Sequence record: PV419677.1
From: a phage
Length of the DNA stretch: 64,000 nt
Reading direction: 5' to 3' (one strand)
The number at the start of each line of letters is the position of its first letter. Position 1 is the stretch's first letter. Below are positions 15,858 to 24,612 of this stretch, one piece after another. A model generated the notes under the pieces. The model was not told where the DNA came from and ran no database searches. It saw only the letters and a program-made list of their open reading frames with translations. Position numbers and translations under genes: made by a program.

Positions 15858-17267
15858 TTAAAAATCAAACATATCAAAAAGAGATGCTTTTTTCTCGTAA
15901 TCAACCTTAGCTGCTTCAGAGAACCCTGTTAACGGTTTGACAAAAGTCTTCTGGAACAGTGTGTTGTAGTCCATCCACTGCAAGACTTGGTCACGGATTT
16001 CAATCGGGAGTTCAATCCCAGATGGCCATGCAATCACGGTTTCACCAAACGGGTTGCCGACTTTAAGAGGAAGTACATACACCTTTTCCCCTTCCATGAT
16101 TTGTGGAACAGTCTTCAGACCTTTAGTTGCACGCATATATGCAAGCACACCTTTGATATGAGCCGGGCACTTAAATCCAGGGAAACCACCCTCATTATAT
16201 TTCTGAATGTTGTTAACCGATGATACACCTGCGATGGTCATGTAGTTAAGCTCATTAAATTCCTTATTGAATTCCTTGAAGTATGTCTGCAGAGATTCTT
16301 CACCTTCTTGCAGCATGCGACGGATACATTCTTTCAGAGCTTTCTGACATGCTTTTGGTGTGCTCGACTTTTGAGTTTCCAGACCCATGATTTTCAGTTT
16401 CGGAACAGCATATCGTGTGCCTTCCATATCGTACACATTCAGAGCATAACGCTTCTTCGCTGTCCAGAATCCACCAACACCTTTAGAACCAAGCGGAGGA
16501 CATGCAATCGCTTCACGGTCCATAAACATAAGGTGCTGTTTGTTGTTCATGTATTCAGCCAGTTCACGGAAAGCTTTATCGATTGCCGGTTCCAGACGGT
16601 CTTTCGCAAACTTGTCCATGAAGTCAACCAGGTGGTTTGTATCGCGGAATTTCGATTCGCCACCAACCTTTTTAATCAGGTTATCGCACTGGATATAAAT
16701 GGAGTCAGTATCGCCATAGAATACATATGTTTCACCACTTGTACCACAAACACTATCAAAATATTCGTTAACTTTACGCTCAATCCACTGCAATGCAAGT
16801 TGTCCGAAAGATGTAATCGCGGTTGCATTTCGCAGGTCAAAGTAACGGAACCAGATATTTCCCACAATTTTGTTCAGTTGAAGTCGTTAATTTCAACCCG
16901 GAATTATATCCAGCTGCATGTTGCCATGCAGAGCAGACTATATCATCATCTTTCGATGCCATGCGCTTCCAGCCACTTGGCTGTACTCCTTTCGGATAGT
17001 CGTTGCACGTTCCTATAATAGGCTTCGCTCAGGATTGTCTCATAGAGATGTCCCCTGAATTCACATGGTTTAAAGTGCGCCGGAATACTTGGTTAACGCA
17101 CCATAACAACTGTTGATAAGCAATTTGCGGTTAATCTGTGCAGTATTTGCCGCAATTTCTGCCATTTGCGAATTATGCAAATGACTTTCCAAATCCGCCC
17201 TTGATAATGTTTTTAAATATGCAATTTGCGAATCATCAAAATCTATATTATAATCAATATTCATCAT
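15858..17267 (-). CDS. 43: DNA polymerase C-terminal subunit gp43B, two exons: join(15858..16864, 17096..17267) if the intron is spliced
   Basis: exon 1 encodes motif B KLLINSCYGAL, exon 2 encodes GNIWFRY... and motif C YGDTDS; both in the same frame, separated by 231 nt with stops. Confidence 0.75.
16865..17095 (-). other. putative ORF-less group I intron in gene 43
   Basis: exon ends in U pairing with G of an internal GCGCAC guide; R-like CAACGACUAU and S-like GAUAUAGUC can form P7; GNRA hairpin CUGCAUG-GCAA-CAUGCAG; last nucleotide G. Confidence 0.6.
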
Positions 17268-18082
17268 TTATTCCTACAGTTATCAAAATGCCAACGTTTC
17301 ATGCCTGCTAATATACCTTCTTTTCCACAATGTGGACAAACTGCTTTAACCTCTTTTGCTTGTTTCCAATATTCCTTTCTGGCATCAGAAATAGCTTGAT
17401 TGTGTTCATCTGAATTTTTGTGTCCCAATCTGGTTTTAACGATATCTGGATTTTTAGCAACACGTTCTTTCATAAACTCAGATTTCGCTGCACGCATTTC
17501 TGGTGTCCAGGCATCGGAGCATTTTTGTTTGTGGTCGTCGGATATAGTTCCATTTTTCAGCACAGACTCATTGTTCTTATAATGTTCAATTAAACTTTGT
17601 GAACGTTTTTGACAAGTTTCTACCGAGTGTTTTGTTCCAGTATTTTTAATTGAGGCGATTTTAAAATTATCAATTGAAATTTTATTGTAATAATCTGGAT
17701 TTTGGGCCCGGGTATATTTGATACTATCGGAAACCTTTTTGGCAACTACTGGATTATGCATCGCATTTGGTAAATTTAAAGAATTGACATAATCCCACCC
17801 ACCTTTACCACCTGGGGTTAAATTATATGTGTCAGTACGTGTGATAAATTCATTATCAACTAATTTGGCTTCAAGTGCATATGCATCATCTTCGTTATCA
17901 AATTCAGCAATGATTGATTTGACCAGGTTATGCTTGCCATATTTTTCTTTCGCAGCTTTCACAATGGGACCCGAACCCAGATAATCATCCAACAAATTAT
18001 AAGATTCACATTTATGAACTCCAATGTAAATCTTATCGTTCACTAAATTTTTAATTTGATAAACAGTGTATACATTTTTCAT
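17264..18082 (-). CDS. GIY-YIG homing endonuclease (seg-like) inserted in gene 43
   Basis: 272 aa; N-terminal VYQIKNLVNDKIYIG, NLTPGGKGG; C-terminal zinc finger CPHCGKEGILAGMKRWHFDNC; own SD AAGGAG. Confidence 0.7.
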   Translation of the reverse strand: MKNVYTVYQIKNLVNDKIYIGVHKCESYNLLDDYLGSGPIVKAAKEKYGKHNLVKSIIAEFDNEDDAYALEAKLVDNEFITRTDTYNLTPGGKGGWDYVNSLNLPNAMHNPVVAKKVSDSIKYTRAQNPDYYNKISIDNFKIASIKNTGTKHSVETCQKRSQSLIEHYKNNESVLKNGTISDDHKQKCSDAWTPEMRAAKSEFMKERVAKNPDIVKTRLGHKNSDEHNQAISDARKEYWKQAKEVKAVCPHCGKEGILAGMKRWHFDNCRNK

Positions 18083-18104
18083 AATGTCTCCTTAATTTAA
18101 AAAT

Positions 18105-18138
18105 ATTTTAGCGCGCTTCCTTGCGCTTGTACAACTTA
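18105..18138 (-). promoter_or_regulatory. promoter-like element upstream of the gene-43 HEG
   Basis: TTGTACAA -35, 18-nt spacer, TAAAAT -10. Confidence 0.35.
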
Positions 18139-19659
18139 AAGATGGTTTAAAAGGTCTTTAATCAATTCACTATTACGTTGTGCCGCCAACATCTTTTTCT
18201 TTTCGGTTTTTCGTTGATTAAAAACTTTCTCAACTTCTGTCGGAATAATACCTGCAACATCTTTAAAATACATCATGCCATTTGGAGCACAACTAAATGT
18301 ATCAGATGGACGGTCAGCAGTTCCTGCGATGTATTCATACATCGGCGCAGGAGCAAATGAACCGGCAATCGTTTCTGGACTGATGTTAATCTGTCGGATG
18401 ATGCTCGGATACAGAGATGTCAAGTCACAGCTCATAACGTATTTGTATGCGTTCGGAATCGGTTCCTTAACAAATGCACCAGGGAATGATTGACGAACAT
18501 GCGATTTGGTTTCCGGAATGACTTTGTTTTGAGTCTTCAGGCTGTTAAAGATAATCGCATCCCAAGTTTTGATTGGGCTGAATACAGACTGAATCTGCAT
18601 TTTTGCGTAATAACCCATTGACTGGCTAAGGTTAATAAACTGGCGCTTACGGTCAATCTGTACAACACGATAAACATCGATGATGTTATAAGAAATATAC
18701 CGTTGGTGATTTGATTCACGCAGTTTAGAAATCGGACCATCATACGGGAGTTTACCAACACCCAGCTCAGATTCCGCAACATAATCCAACGAATAAGACG
18801 GTTGGTTTGTGAAGCTGAACTTTTTATACAGGTCCAGATAATCCAGAACAGAGATACCCAGAATCTGAATGATTTCTTGTTCTTCACCAAAGCCGTTGTT
18901 AATTACTTTAACTTTTGTACGACGATGTGGGCTCAGACGTTTTGCTGTGGCTTCACCAAATACATTTTTAAGGCGGTTGTAGATATACGGAATATCAAAC
19001 TTCTCGATGTTCCAACCAGTTAACATAACCGGAGTTTTCTCGTTCCAGAATACCAAATACTGCTGGAGCATTTCTTCTTCTGAATCGAAAGCCATATAAA
19101 CAATTTTTTCCAGGATTTCTTCAGGGACTTCATCGCCGCCATCTTCTTGCAGCTTGGCAGCAATATCAATAGACCATTGCTCCACAGTGGCGTATGGTGA
19201 GCTCAAAAGGTCAAAGACATAGAATTTATCGTCTACCGAATCATAGTGCGTCAGGGCATCAATAGGGTGACGTGCTTCAGACGGCTCAGGGAACCCATCC
19301 GGAGATGTCACCTCGATATCGAAGTTAGCCACACGGATTTTACTTGAATCGTATTTGATTTCGTGTGGATAACGGTCGGACAAGTATGCGAGTTTAAAGT
19401 CATCCATACCCATAGCTTCGAGACCCATGTCATTCATTCGCTTCATCCACTGGGATGCATCACGCATGGAATCGAATTCTTTTTTCACACAACCTTTATT
19501 ATAGATGTCTGTATACTTTGCAGCCTGGTCTTCGCGAGCATGCATAAACAAGCATGGAGCATAAGGGATTTCACGAACACGTTCATGACCATTCTTGTCA
19601 ATGTATCGTTCAAGCAGATTGTCACCGATTTGTTCGATAGTTAAATAAAATTCTTGCAT
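18136..19659 (-). CDS. 43: DNA polymerase N-terminal subunit gp43A (N-terminal and 3'-5' exonuclease region)
   Basis: 507 aa; N-terminus MQEFYLTIEQIGDNLLERYID matches remembered T4 gp43; ends in-frame with stop before the HEG. Confidence 0.9.
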   Translation of the reverse strand: MQEFYLTIEQIGDNLLERYIDKNGHERVREIPYAPCLFMHAREDQAAKYTDIYNKGCVKKEFDSMRDASQWMKRMNDMGLEAMGMDDFKLAYLSDRYPHEIKYDSSKIRVANFDIEVTSPDGFPEPSEARHPIDALTHYDSVDDKFYVFDLLSSPYATVEQWSIDIAAKLQEDGGDEVPEEILEKIVYMAFDSEEEMLQQYLVFWNEKTPVMLTGWNIEKFDIPYIYNRLKNVFGEATAKRLSPHRRTKVKVINNGFGEEQEIIQILGISVLDYLDLYKKFSFTNQPSYSLDYVAESELGVGKLPYDGPISKLRESNHQRYISYNIIDVYRVVQIDRKRQFINLSQSMGYYAKMQIQSVFSPIKTWDAIIFNSLKTQNKVIPETKSHVRQSFPGAFVKEPIPNAYKYVMSCDLTSLYPSIIRQINISPETIAGSFAPAPMYEYIAGTADRPSDTFSCAPNGMMYFKDVAGIIPTEVEKVFNQRKTEKKKMLAAQRNSELIKDLLNHL

Positions 19660-19972: not shown

Positions 19973-20330
19973 TTGTGTATTTGGCTACAAGCTTCCAGTC
20001 GTCTTTTTGTTTAAAGGAGATAACACGGAAGTTGTTTGTTACTGCGAACAATTCATTATGCTCTTCTTCTTTGATAGTGATTAAGCCCCAGTCTTCGAGC
20101 AGTTGAGCAATGGAATCACGGCGCTGATAGTCTTCACCATCAATATCCACCTGGCGACCATCCATGCGCAGCATTTCTTTGAAGTGAACAATATAATAAC
20201 GGCCTTGCTTCTGGAGGATGTGGCAGCTCTGGTACAGCACACGGTCTTTATTATTTGCGATGCCCATACGGGTCAGAGTTTCTTTAACTTTCAGGAAGTC
20301 TTCAGGTTGCTTTAATGTAATTTCAATCAT
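19962..20330 (-). CDS. regA: translational repressor RegA
   Basis: 122 aa; MIEITLKxPEDFLKVKETLTRMGIANNKD matches remembered T4 RegA. Confidence 0.9.
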   Translation of the reverse strand: MIEITLKQPEDFLKVKETLTRMGIANNKDRVLYQSCHILQKQGRYYIVHFKEMLRMDGRQVDIDGEDYQRRDSIAQLLEDWGLITIKEEEHNELFAVTNNFRVISFKQKDDWKLVAKYTIGN

Positions 20331-20331
20331 T

Positions 20332-20910
20332 TTACCATTCCAATATTTGTTTTTTAATTTCTTTTTGTTCTTTCACATTACTGGTAACGGTCTTTAAGAA
20401 TTCATCCGTCACCAGACCTTTTGTCTTTTTCAAAACATCTTTAAGACTACCTTTGGCTTTCAATGTTTCCATATACATCAAAGCATCATCTGCATTAATT
20501 GTATAATATTTCATTAAAAGCTTTAACACAAGCTGGACGCTGACTACATCCGGCTCAGCCTTCGCCCATTTACCATAACGCTTGCCTTGCGGAACTGCAT
20601 GCAGCAAATAATTATAATGCTGTTGGTCTGTTAACCCGGAACCGATTAAGTTCATCACGTTTACCTGCATGATGCAATCGACATGTTGGCTCAACGCGTT
20701 TTCCAACCAGAATTTATTGTAGTTTTCCGATTGAATCAGGTTCCGTGGTTTTTTGCTAACGGTTATGTCATTAAGAATCGCAAACAATTCATTTTCTGCT
20801 TTCTCTTTGTATGAATCGGACAATTCCTGAATTTTGTTAAAGTCGCGTGATTTCCACGCAACCTCATGTTCGTTTAATTGAACGTCATCACCAAAGAGAC
20901 TTACAGCCAT
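20332..20910 (-). CDS. 62: clamp loader small subunit gp62
   Basis: 192 aa; colinear with remembered T4 gp62 (GKRYGKWAK, LKGLVTDEFLK). Confidence 0.8.
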   Translation of the reverse strand: MAVSLFGDDVQLNEHEVAWKSRDFNKIQELSDSYKEKAENELFAILNDITVSKKPRNLIQSENYNKFWLENALSQHVDCIMQVNVMNLIGSGLTDQQHYNYLLHAVPQGKRYGKWAKAEPDVVSVQLVLKLLMKYYTINADDALMYMETLKAKGSLKDVLKKTKGLVTDEFLKTVTSNVKEQKEIKKQILEW

Positions 20911-21878
20911 TTCATTTCCCCAGCCAGTTGAGCAAACAGATAAGTCAAGTGAACTTCGGTATTGGCCGCAATGCCATGGTACTGATTATTCTCACCTACA
21001 ATCTCATACATGCGGATGATACTTGCACCAGTCAGTTTGCCATACATTTCATCAGCCAGCTTTGCAATGAAGCTTGAATAATCATTTGCATGCTTAGGAG
21101 CCAGACCACGGAGAACTTTAAAGTTACGGTCCTTAAGGGCATCAATCACATCATCAATTGGCGTGCGATTGTTTGTCACGATACTCAGAATACCAGAATC
21201 GATAACACCCTTTGCAGAGTAACGGTCAAGCTCGTTAATTGTCTTACGCAGGTCCGGGAAGTTATGCTTAACCAGAGCAGCAACAACTTTCAGGTCTTCG
21301 ATTTCAACGCCTTCGTTTTTACATATCGCAACCGCACGATGAATCATCTCTTTCATCATAGTAGTCTGGTCAGCTGGAGTTGCTTCACCAAACTTAATTA
21401 CGCGACAACGAGACTGCAACGGAGTAATGATGCCATCGATATTGTTCGCGGTCATAATGATTGAACAGTTGCTCGAATAAGCTTCCATAAAGCTACGGAG
21501 GTGTCGTTGTGATTCTGCCAGACCTGCACGGTCGAACTCATCGATAACAATTACCTTACGGCGACCTTCGATTGATTTGGATGATGCAAAGCGAGTCAAT
21601 TCATTACGCACAAAGTCAATTCGGCAATCGGAGCCGTTAACAAACAGCATATCAGAATTCGTATCTGCGCACATAGCTTTTGCAACTGTTGTCTTACCAG
21701 TACCAGGGGAACTACTGACCAGAATCAAGTTAGGAATCAAACCTTTTTTAACAATCGCCTCTAATGTTTCTTTATCGTGAGCCGGGAGAATACACTCTGA
21801 TAATGTACCTGGGCGGTATTTTTGTTCCCACATGAAGTCGGATTCGTTGACTGTCAAACCGTTAATTACTGTTGCCAT
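20901..21878 (-). CDS. 44: clamp loader large subunit gp44 (AAA+)
   Basis: Walker A SPGTGKTT, DEFDR Walker B; start trimmed to an internal Met. Confidence 0.9.
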   Translation of the reverse strand: MATVINGLTVNESDFMWEQKYRPGTLSECILPAHDKETLEAIVKKGLIPNLILVSSSPGTGKTTVAKAMCADTNSDMLFVNGSDCRIDFVRNELTRFASSKSIEGRRKVIVIDEFDRAGLAESQRHLRSFMEAYSSNCSIIMTANNIDGIITPLQSRCRVIKFGEATPADQTTMMKEMIHRAVAICKNEGVEIEDLKVVAALVKHNFPDLRKTINELDRYSAKGVIDSGILSIVTNNRTPIDDVIDALKDRNFKVLRGLAPKHANDYSSFIAKLADEMYGKLTGASIIRMYEIVGENNQYHGIAANTEVHLTYLFAQLAGEMKWL

Positions 21879-22439
21879 TATTATTTTCCTCATTAAATTT
21901 TTTAACTATTTTATTCAATTCATTGGCTGAATAATTATACCCATAGTTCCGCAAAAGCGTACTGAACTTACCGCGCTTTGGTTTATCCAGCTCTATCCAA
22001 ATTTTTAACAGTTCATCATAGTGATTCCAAACTTCAGAACGCTGCCATAACGAACAATTCAATTTATGTGTTTTACTAAATGTTCGAGATACACCAGTAC
22101 GTGATTCAGACATTTGTCTACGAGTTTCTTCTGTATGAAAATCAACTCCACCATTACCGCCTGGATGAACATTAACACATTTATTTCCATATTCAATAAG
22201 ACCTTTGGCAACAATCAAAGATTCATAGTGTTTAGCTTCTTTGAAAGTTTTTACTTCTTTAATAATTTTTGTATCGAATAACCAAAGCCCAGGAATTAAA
22301 TCATTTTCTTTTCGACAAGCTTTAATAAACGTTCCACTGCCGTGATATTCTTCACCGGTCAAACGATGTCTACCAAAATAATGATAAACATCGTTTGATG
22401 CAGTATTTGTTATTTTTGTATGATAACAAATGTATGACA
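21862..22439 (-). CDS. GIY-YIG homing endonuclease (seg-like) between genes 45 and 44
   Basis: start at ATG 22437-22439 with GGAG SD; SYICY...VYHYFG, YHGSG and NVHPGGNGG motifs shared with the gene-43 HEG. Confidence 0.55.
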
Positions 22440-22471
22440 TTTTATTCTCCATGGGGCCGAAGCCCCATTTA

Positions 22472-23167
22472 TTAATCTTGGAATTCGTGGCTAGAGCCTT
22501 GTTCCATCGCAATCACATAGCTTGCTTGTGTGCCTTCAAACTTCGTAGCAAATTTATCATCTTTCGCCCAAAGCATAACACGGTAATCAGCCGGAATCAT
22601 TTTCATGTTCAGTTTGTTAATGATAAATTTAAACGCTGCATCGCCTTCGTAGTCGCCACATACCAGGGAATACAATGGACGTGCTAATTCTTTATCTTCG
22701 AGCTGGTTATAACCATGGATAACAATCTTACCGTCTTTGTTGGTGATTGCAAAGGTGTCCAGAGACAAACCACCAGCCACACGCAGAAGCTGCTGCAGGT
22801 CACTACCTTTCAGGTCGAAAATAACCTTAGCTACCGGGAAAGGAATCTTTTTAGCAGGGAACACGATAGTGCTCGGGTCTGCAGCTGGCCAGTGAATCGT
22901 TGAACGTTGGTCTTTGATAATGATGTTTGATGCGTCTTCAGCCAGAGATACTTCAGCTTGGTCAGTTACCAGGCCCAGGATACTTAAGAAGCCGTTCAGG
23001 TCATAAATCGCAGCTTCAAAGTCAATTGTATCATTGATTTCGGCTTCGCCATATGACGCTCCAGTTACGGAACGAGTCAGGATGGTATTACCTGGCTTAA
23101 GCATAATGCCAGAGTAAATGGAAGTAAAGTTTTTCAATACCGCGATTGTGTCCTTTGAGAATTTCAT
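22472..23167 (-). CDS. 45: sliding clamp gp45
   Basis: 231 aa; MKFSKDT...LKNF...GIMLK colinear with remembered T4 gp45. Confidence 0.9.
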   Translation of the reverse strand: MKFSKDTIAVLKNFTSIYSGIMLKPGNTILTRSVTGASYGEAEINDTIDFEAAIYDLNGFLSILGLVTDQAEVSLAEDASNIIIKDQRSTIHWPAADPSTIVFPAKKIPFPVAKVIFDLKGSDLQQLLRVAGGLSLDTFAITNKDGKIVIHGYNQLEDKELARPLYSLVCGDYEGDAAFKFIINKLNMKMIPADYRVMLWAKDDKFATKFEGTQASYVIAMEQGSSHEFQD

Positions 23168-23895: not shown

Positions 23896-24612
23896 ATGAA
23901 TTATAACATCATTTACCAAAAGCTTATTAGCAGAGCATTGAATCGCAAATTAACCACATACTCTGAAAGCCATCACATTATACCCCGTTGTATGGGTGGG
24001 GCTGACGACGCTTCAAATCTTGTTGATTTAACTCCCGAGGAACATTTCGTTTGCCATCAACTGTTGGTCAAAATGCATCCAAATAACGCTTCTTTGGTCT
24101 ATGCCGCGCGCATGATGACAGTTTCTGCACCAAATGCCGACAGAAGCAAAAATAAATTATTTGGATGGCTTCGTCGTAAAAACTTGGAAGCTCAACAAAA
24201 TAAAATTTTCTCCGATGAAACCAGAAAGAAAATGTCAGAATCCGCCAAATTAAAACCGAGAGTCGAATGTCCACACTGTGGAAAAACCGGTCTCGCTGGC
24301 AATATGAATCGTTGGCATTTTGATAACTGTTCCAAAGGTCCAAACAAGGTTGTTCATACTATTCCGGAAAAGCAAAAGCAAAAAATTTCAGTAGGTTTAA
24401 AACAAGCTAAACATGAAATTTTAAATTGTGAATTTTGCGGGCTTGAAGGTAAAAAGTGTGTTATATCCACTCACCGACAATTCTGCAAATCCAATCCAAA
24501 CCGGAAGAAAAAGGTGGACCCCAAAATTCAGTGTCCACACTGTAATGTAGTCAGTACGCCAGCTAATATGAAACGTTGGCATTTTGATAACTGCAAAATG
24601 AAGCCTCAATAA
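23896..24612 (+). CDS. HNH homing endonuclease with three C-terminal zinc-finger repeats
   Basis: start trimmed to ATG 23896; HHIIPRCMGGADDASNLVDLTPEEHFVCH; three copies of a CPHCGK...RWHFDNC-type module; only large plus-strand gene in the region. Confidence 0.7.
   Translation: MNYNIIYQKLISRALNRKLTTYSESHHIIPRCMGGADDASNLVDLTPEEHFVCHQLLVKMHPNNASLVYAARMMTVSAPNADRSKNKLFGWLRRKNLEAQQNKIFSDETRKKMSESAKLKPRVECPHCGKTGLAGNMNRWHFDNCSKGPNKVVHTIPEKQKQKISVGLKQAKHEILNCEFCGLEGKKCVISTHRQFCKSNPNRKKKVDPKIQCPHCNVVSTPANMKRWHFDNCKMKPQ

Follow-up and report, generated by a model that had tools for sequence, protein, structure and literature searches.

A probable seg-type GIY-YIG homing endonuclease gene between the sliding clamp and clamp-loader genes of a T4-like phage

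In phage T4, the sliding clamp gene (gene 45) and the gene for the large subunit of the clamp loader (gene 44) are separated by a spacer of only 51 nucleotides (nt). What, then, is the 579-nt open reading frame (ORF) found between the same two genes in the phage sequence record PV419677.1? We analyzed a 64,000-nt stretch of this record, which we refer to as the window, and asked two questions of the locus: (i) to which protein family the ORF belongs; and (ii) whether the ORF is a mobile insertion into the clamp/clamp-loader operon. We conclude, with a probability of roughly 0.8, that the ORF encodes a homing endonuclease of the T4 "seg" type and that this free-standing gene is intact. Judging from its sequence, the product is probably an active homing endonuclease that has gone unannotated.

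Between positions 20000 and 24000, the window is 96-97% identical to vB_EcoM_VR20, SP18, vB_YenM_P8, and others, and the phage is T4-like, of the genus Gaprivervirus (VR7/VR20/SP18-type). The ORF encodes 192 amino acids (aa) plus a stop codon; it runs on the minus strand from an ATG at 22440 to a stop codon ending at 21862. An original prediction, made from the DNA sequence, had placed a seg-like endonuclease gene at 21862-22439, which is a real ORF with an end coordinate one base short. Annotated relatives confirm that its neighbors are genes 45 and 44, as that prediction stated, and the accompanying remark that T4 has nothing between the two genes is accurate, apart from the short spacer.

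Family assignment and predicted fold

Profile and sequence searches both pointed to the seg-like homing endonucleases. The ORF matched PHROG_314, a "homing endonuclease" family (E 3.8e-15), as did a GIY-YIG endonuclease that splits gene 43 of the window (the gene-43 endonuclease). By tblastn, the ORF matched the annotated segA of VR26 (28% identity, E 5e-7) and the annotated segE of AR1/RB32 (26% identity, E 6e-4). A word-indexed protein search returned 3 clusters only, and an exhaustive profile search was needed to reach the seg relatives; it identified 199 proteins at E <= 1e-3. We aligned 60 of these 199 proteins and used this alignment for both conservation analysis and structure prediction. 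Among the 60 aligned homologues, NUMOD3 was found in 34, SegE_GIY-YIG in 17, and GIY-YIG in 13. The sole Pfam result for the ORF itself was NUMOD3, at 16.5 bits and under the cut-off of 20.4. The orthologue in phage MX01 is already called "Homing endonuclease" in UniProt. We note that a single-sequence search of the PDB gave a chance capsid match only, which we discarded. The seg-like GIY-YIG identity put forward in the original prediction is thus supported by profile matches, both to PHROG_314 and to remote homologues with SegE_GIY-YIG and GIY-YIG domains, and not by a direct Pfam match.

We used AlphaFold to assess whether the ORF product is predicted to adopt a GIY-YIG fold. The model from the 60-sequence alignment had a predicted local distance difference test score (pLDDT) of 90.7 overall and of 95-98 over aa 1-90, with strands at residues 3-12 and 18-26, a helix at 37-48, a strand at 53-63, and a helix at 66-87. 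The GIY-YIG core fold, a three-stranded sheet with the GIY and YIG strands as a hairpin, packed on helices, is present in this model, and a model from only 3 sequences agrees on it. Structure prediction thus recovered the fold whose absence would, by the original prediction, have refuted the assignment. Structural matches among GIY-YIG proteins were 9u75, UvrC (1ycz), EndoII (2wsh), and Eco29kI (3mx4), and the Foldseek matches of the model in BFVD were seg-like or homing endonucleases. Y6, Y21, E73, and N90 were invariant or at least 90% conserved among the 60 aligned homologues. A hidden Markov model alignment, statistically weak at E 2.1, pairs these four residues with Y6, Y17, E75, and N90 of I-TevI, the endonuclease of the T4 td intron. 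K40 is invariant in one of the alignments.

The catalytic domain is followed by a NUMOD3-like linker and by a putative C-terminal DNA-binding domain (Table 1). The linker was aligned by profile to the DNA-binding region of I-TevI (1i3j, E 0.034). The fold match of the C-terminal region was a three-helix Myb/homeodomain-like fold and not I-TevI_DNA-bd. There is no CxxC...C motif at the C terminus of the ORF, in keeping with the original prediction that it lacks the zinc finger of the gene-43 endonuclease, which ends in CPHCGK...HFDNC. Two motifs had also been described as common to these endonucleases. The N-x-x-PGG-x-GG motif is indeed shared (NVHPGGNGG in the ORF, NLTPGGKGG in the gene-43 endonuclease), but the other is Y-x-GSG rather than YHGSG, because it reads YHGSG in the ORF and YLGSG in the gene-43 endonuclease. 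The nuclease domains of the two proteins are homologous (hhalign probability 85%, E 6e-6, 31% identity over 77 columns). The gene-43 endonuclease differs from the ORF product in its length (272 aa), in passing the Pfam GIY-YIG model (23.0 vs 22.6 bits), and in its CxxC...C zinc finger end. It also interrupts a coding sequence, whereas the ORF sits in a spacer, and the two assort independently.

We compared the ORF with two known systems. Like the Seg endonucleases of T4 (SegA-SegG; SegH of phage U5), it combines an N-terminal GIY-YIG domain, bearing the Y-x-GSG and N-x-x-PGG-x-GG motifs, with a NUMOD3-like linker and a C-terminal DNA-binding region, which is putative in the ORF; it is likewise free-standing, in a short spacer between conserved genes, and sporadic in its distribution. 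It differs from them in having only 25-28% identity to named seg proteins, in the missing zinc finger, and in its site, as PMC2988022 lists no T4 seg or mob gene at 45/44. The Pfam GIY-YIG and SegE_GIY-YIG models miss the ORF because it is too divergent. With I-TevI, the ORF shares the aligned Tyr, Tyr, Glu, and Asn positions, the linker that aligns to the DNA-binding region, and a two-domain layout with a C-terminal module of helix-turn-helix type (again putative in the ORF). However, identity to I-TevI is 14-15%, the ORF lies outside any intron, its linker has no zinc finger, and its C-terminal fold match is Myb/homeodomain-like instead of I-TevI_DNA-bd.

Insertion site and expression signals

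Comparison with related genomes revealed empty sites, which substantiates the proposal of an insertion into the clamp/clamp-loader operon. The empty-site 45-44 spacer is 55-58 nt long. Aligned with these sites, the occupied site has exchanged 19 nt (TACAAAGTAGAAACTAATA in SP18) for 554 nt and is thereby 535 nt longer, with each junction uncertain by a few bases. The distance from a hairpin downstream of gene 45 to an anchor in gene 44 is correspondingly 81 nt in SP18, compared with 616 nt where the site is occupied. We found no terminal repeats or transposon-like ends of the insert, and an Rfam E-value scan of positions 21600-22800 found no intron around the endonuclease gene; the same tool does detect one in gene 43, a group I intron at 16914-17127. 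Hence, we rejected a transposon or an intron as the nature of the insert.

The minus-strand order at the locus is gene 45, hairpin, GGAG, six bases, endonuclease ATG, ORF, and gene 44. The hairpin, GGGGC-UUCG-GCCCC, ends two bases upstream of the GGAG. The original prediction had noted this hairpin upstream of the Shine-Dalgarno sequence of the endonuclease gene; it is present there, but it is not a feature of that gene. All 9 of the empty-site Gapriverviruses aligned have an identical hairpin with an identical ATGGAG after it, CCCCATGGAG with the GGAG is common to SP18, 212, VR25, VR7, and VR26, and T4 has a counterpart of the hairpin at the same place (GGGCTTCGGCCC). The hairpin is therefore a resident element outside the insert, and we rejected it as a part of the endonuclease cassette. 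From the same alignments, the endonuclease gene appears to borrow the pre-existing GGAG as its ribosome-binding site. The predicted fold of region 22400-22500 (101 nt; whole-region minimum free energy -22.2 kcal/mol, z -2.3) contains the hairpin, and no U run follows it on the coding strand. We also observed in this fold that UUCC at the end of gene 45 pairs with GGAG/UGGA of the endonuclease Shine-Dalgarno, extending the UUCG hairpin. If it forms, this pairing could damp translation of the endonuclease.

No T4 late promoter (TATAAATA) was found in or near the ORF, and its sigma-70-like sites were at the level of shuffled sequence. The gene is a promoterless cassette in the 45-44-62 operon, similar to segC, segF, and segG, which are promoterless cassettes that use the upstream operon (PMC2988022).

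The 3' end of the endonuclease gene merges with the start of gene 44. Gene 44 begins at 21878, which gives a 17-nt overlap with the ORF, such that the endonuclease stop lies 17 nt into gene 44. The last codons of the ORF (...FNEENNNGNSN, then stop) contain the gene 44 ribosome-binding site, GAGGAAAATAATAATG. The gene 44 initiation region is likewise inside the 3' end of the endonuclease gene in Bp7, MX01, and LQ5. Within this region, the A/U-rich AAUAAUAAU / AAAAUAAUAAUG is similar to the consensus for RB69 RegA obtained by systematic evolution of ligands by exponential enrichment (SELEX), as quoted in PMC3014915.

Conservation, distribution, and proposed homing

The ORF product has a counterpart in VR20_051, annotated "hypothetical protein," with 98.9% tblastn identity and ~99% nucleotide identity between the two copies; an identical protein is found on two Logan contigs. 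An allele at the same site of an ENA metagenome contig (L010, 93-671) has 88% protein identity and ~85% nucleotide identity, whereas its flanks are ~96% identical to the window. Based on this contrast, the element either is much older than its present background or was imported independently of it. The ratio of nonsynonymous to synonymous substitution rates (dN/dS) against this allele was 0.07, at a dS of 0.81, and ranged from 0.06 to 0.08 across the nuclease and DNA-binding halves, which shows that the protein is under purifying selection. Across at least 8 genomes or contigs, the ORF is kept at 58-99% protein identity. The GenBank records of VR20, Bp7, and MX01 call it "hypothetical protein" or "unknown," as might be expected of a chance ORF in AT-rich intergenic DNA. 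However, such an origin is exceedingly improbable given the conservation of the ORF, its dN/dS, its confident predicted fold, and the proper spacing between GGAG and ATG. The ORF is a real gene and not a chance ORF.

The distribution of this gene is sporadic. In the phage collection, VR20 alone of 28 Gapriverviruses carries it, and the other 27 have a clean empty site. The collection holds at least 37 Dhakaviruses; five of them (Bp7, PSD2002, LQ5, SHP1, and MX01) carry an orthologue at 45/44 with 58-64% tblastn identity, one more has a deleted copy, and at least 31 others are without it. A search of IMG/VR returned the VR20 and vB_EcoM_005 copies only, and a scan of JGI metagenomes returned none. 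In vB_EcoM_005 (MK295203.1; L004:220-1656), a deletion has brought the first 157 endonuclease codons into frame with gene 44, which continues from its codon 6. The joined ORF of 478 aa is annotated "clamp loader subunit," and its endonuclease part is Bp7-type. Either this is a genuine GIY-YIG::gp44 fusion within an essential gene, or the record, which is only 155 kb long, is misassembled here. A further contig, L011, encodes an endonuclease protein identical to that of the window, but its gene 43 is unsplit and it has no HNH gene near gene 46. This composition, together with the contrast between allele and flanks on L010, indicates that the element travels separately from its genomic background and from the other endonuclease genes of the window.

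The Dhakavirus orthologues have the same site, orientation, and domain order as the ORF, and a near-identical 3' end (GYNYSANELNKIVKxFNEENNN) with the gene 44 ribosome-binding site. They differ in their surroundings. Compared to JS98 and QL01, which do not carry the endonuclease gene (seg-), the whole spacer of the five seg+ Dhakaviruses is replaced, including the local resident hairpin, and gene 44 starts with 42 nt of a foreign "long" type, with MSKVVNGLTINENDF instead of MLTVNNNEF. The endonuclease ATG of these phages overlaps the gene 45 stop (TAATG), so its translation is probably coupled to that of gene 45.

This long type is one of two haplotypes of the gene 44 5' end. For the long type in Gapriverviruses, the ribosome-binding site and first codons are GAGGAAAATAATAATG and MATVINGLTVNESDF; for the short, T4-like type, they are GAGGAAAATATATG and MLTVNDKEF. 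The rest of gene 44 is near identical between the two. All seg+ Gapriverviruses and seg+ Dhakaviruses have the long type. The seg- Gapriverviruses are divided, with the short type in 20 and the long type in 7; JS98 and QL01, the seg- Dhakaviruses checked, both have the short type, and Klebsiella phages carry the long type in part.

We propose a mechanism by analogy with seg and mob biology (reviewed, with the T4 seg site list, in PMC2988022). During mixed infection, the endonuclease would cut both DNA strands of a co-infecting seg- phage within the 45/44 region, and recombinational repair from the seg+ genome would then copy the gene, together with adjacent markers, into the recipient. The outcome would be intronless homing, appearing as localized marker exclusion. 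The foreign gene 44 patch of the seg+ Dhakaviruses fits such co-conversion without locating the cut. Any homologous exchange from a long-type donor would bring this patch, and it is therefore no independent evidence for a cut there.

Three sets of results weigh against the reading as a seg-type homing endonuclease gene: (i) family models, as neither Pfam GIY-YIG (PF01541) nor SegE_GIY-YIG (PF19835) matched the ORF even at E <= 1, an NCBIfam scan gave no match, and no equivalent of I-TevI R27, the universally conserved GIY-YIG arginine of the first helix, was assignable among the candidates R24, R26, K40, and R43; (ii) the flanks, which we searched for a co-conversion or immunity haplotype over ~700 nt per side in 4-5 seg+ and 9 seg- Gapriverviruses; and (iii) rarity and decay. 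In the flank search, no single-nucleotide polymorphism was fixed between seg+ and seg- phages, and no co-conversion tract or protected target site was visible; the one constant associate of the seg+ state is the long type of the gene 44 5' end, which the 7 seg- Gapriverviruses mentioned above also have. Because the flank polymorphisms are mosaic, the cleavage site is not inferable from these sequences. With regard to rarity, the presence of the element in few genomes fits one that is not spreading efficiently at present. With regard to decay, the Bp7-type allele (L003:1519-2097) has a scrambled C-terminal stretch with two small insertions (KENLSKRARKYSDVWSEPVYSNLKT vs KLNCSKWQRSEIWQNYEELRK in MX01) that resembles compensating frameshifts, and this allele may be decaying. 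Judging from this patch and from the vB_EcoM_005 deletion, some copies of the endonuclease gene are probably decaying.

These same observations bear on a second explanation, namely that the endonuclease is catalytically dead or retired and is kept only as the carrier of the essential gene 44 initiation region. The gene 44 ribosome-binding site and start do lie within the ORF, host signals embedded in seg genes are noted in a review to favor seg retention (PMC2988022), and the rarity of the element, its apparently decaying copies, and the absence of a direct Pfam match would all accord with a retired gene. We nevertheless regard this explanation as unlikely. A dN/dS of 0.06-0.08 over both halves, at a dS of ~0.8, would be unexpected if only the last 20 nt mattered, and the catalytic Y, Y, E, and N are kept. 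Moreover, many phages have a clean empty site and a gene 44 ribosome-binding site that works, which means that the element can be lost.

Purifying selection on the endonuclease and its location within an essential replication operon would also be expected of a nuclease or DNA-binding protein co-opted to aid the phage without homing, either as a weapon against the replication operon of competitors or as a regulator at 45/44. The seg+ flanks show no protected target-site haplotype, Seg enzymes are known to cause marker exclusion (PMC2988022), and SegB is reported to aid immune evasion (PMC13096335), all of which could be accommodated by co-option. Yet the element is sporadic and fixed in no lineage, and the adjacent sequence of the seg+ Dhakaviruses is replaced, as repair-mediated transfer predicts. 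Cleavage competition and homing are, in addition, two sides of one mechanism, and a competitive or regulatory role does not differ in mechanism from marker exclusion by seg genes. We therefore consider co-option without homing quite unlikely.

We favor a seg-type homing endonuclease gene, and a more specific reading can be built on it, which we offer as tentative and doubtful. The endonuclease would target the variable 5' end of gene 44, and a cassette comprising the seg gene together with the ribosome-binding site and the first 14 long-type codons of gene 44 would drive exchange of the gp44 N terminus between T4-like genera. With the gene 44 start signals as part of it, this cassette would not easily be lost. 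The 7 seg- Gapriverviruses of the long type would then be phages scarred by homing in the past, or survivors that resist cleavage. The element would act as a competition weapon against the replication operons of co-infecting phages.

Our literature searches found no paper describing a 45/44 endonuclease element. A seg-type gene at this locus would add to the catalogue of seg-type homing endonucleases both the 45/44 site and a divergent subfamily that Pfam and NCBIfam miss, and would correct the "hypothetical protein" annotations in VR20, Bp7, PSD2002, and MX01. As a tractable natural system, it would also lend itself to measuring intronless homing and co-conversion in an essential operon, that of the clamp and its loader: the site exists both occupied and empty, two diverged alleles are set in flanks that are nearly identical, and gene 44 has two 5' haplotypes. 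The understanding of such elements is unchanged by this work; T4-like genomes are full of such genes, and one more will not surprise the specialist.

Other endonuclease genes of the replication cluster

The coordinates of the 45/44 locus and of the other endonuclease-related features of the replication cluster are given in Table 1.

Table 1. Features of the window at the 45/44 locus and in the surrounding replication cluster
Feature	Position	Strand	Basis
seg-like free-standing GIY-YIG endonuclease ORF	21862..22440	minus	ORF list, sequence
N-terminal GIY-YIG catalytic domain, aa 1-98	22147..22440	minus	
NUMOD3-like linker motif DFHTEETRRQMSESRTG, aa 100-116	22093..22143	minus	sub-threshold Pfam; homologues; profile alignment
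Putative C-terminal helical, helix-turn-helix-like DNA-binding domain, aa 123-189	21874..22074	minus	
Inserted segment vs empty-site Gapriverviruses	21893..22446	minus	alignment with VR20, SP18; junction sequences
GGAG Shine-Dalgarno of endonuclease, 6 nt before ATG, resident sequence	22447..22450	minus	sequence
GGGGC-UUCG-GCCCC tetraloop hairpin, resident 45-44 intercistronic element	22453..22466	minus	sequence, empty sites
Gene 45, sliding clamp, upstream neighbor of ORF	22472..23167	minus	annotated relatives
Gene 44, clamp-loader large subunit, downstream neighbor of ORF	20901..21878	minus	annotated relatives; Pfam AAA, Gp44_lid, Gp44_C
Gene 44 translation initiation region TGAGGAAAATAATAATG, within endonuclease ORF 3' end	21876..21892	minus	sequence
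"Long-type" gene 44 5' end MATVINGLTVNESD, polymorphic patch	21837..21878	minus	comparison of relatives
Gene 43 first piece, 507 aa, ends in stop	18136..19659	minus	
Free-standing GIY-YIG + zinc-finger endonuclease splitting gene 43	17264..18082	minus	
Gene 43 middle piece, 65 aa	17070..17267	minus	
ORF-less group I intron in gene 43	16914..17127	minus	Rfam RF00028, 81.4 bits, E 5e-21
Gene 43 last piece	15858..16865	minus	
HNH endonuclease with repeated zinc ribbons, between genes 45.2 and 46	23896-24612	plus	PHROG_655 homing endonuclease, E 8e-67

Gene 43, which encodes the DNA polymerase, is in three coding pieces over positions 15858-19659 of the minus strand. The gene-43 endonuclease lies ~140 nt upstream of the ORF-less intron in the same essential gene, an arrangement found in no Gaprivervirus of the phage collection. 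Relatives of the intron, with 78-86% identity, are in vB_EcoM_G2285 and PSD2002. The HNH endonuclease gene is on the strand opposite to its neighbors and is absent from VR20, SP18, and contig L011. In VR26 (L017:1621-1837), a different gene, a "putative DNA endonuclease," lies directly upstream of gene 45 and overlaps the gene 45 start, indicating that different endonuclease genes occupy different spacers of the replication cluster in sister phages.

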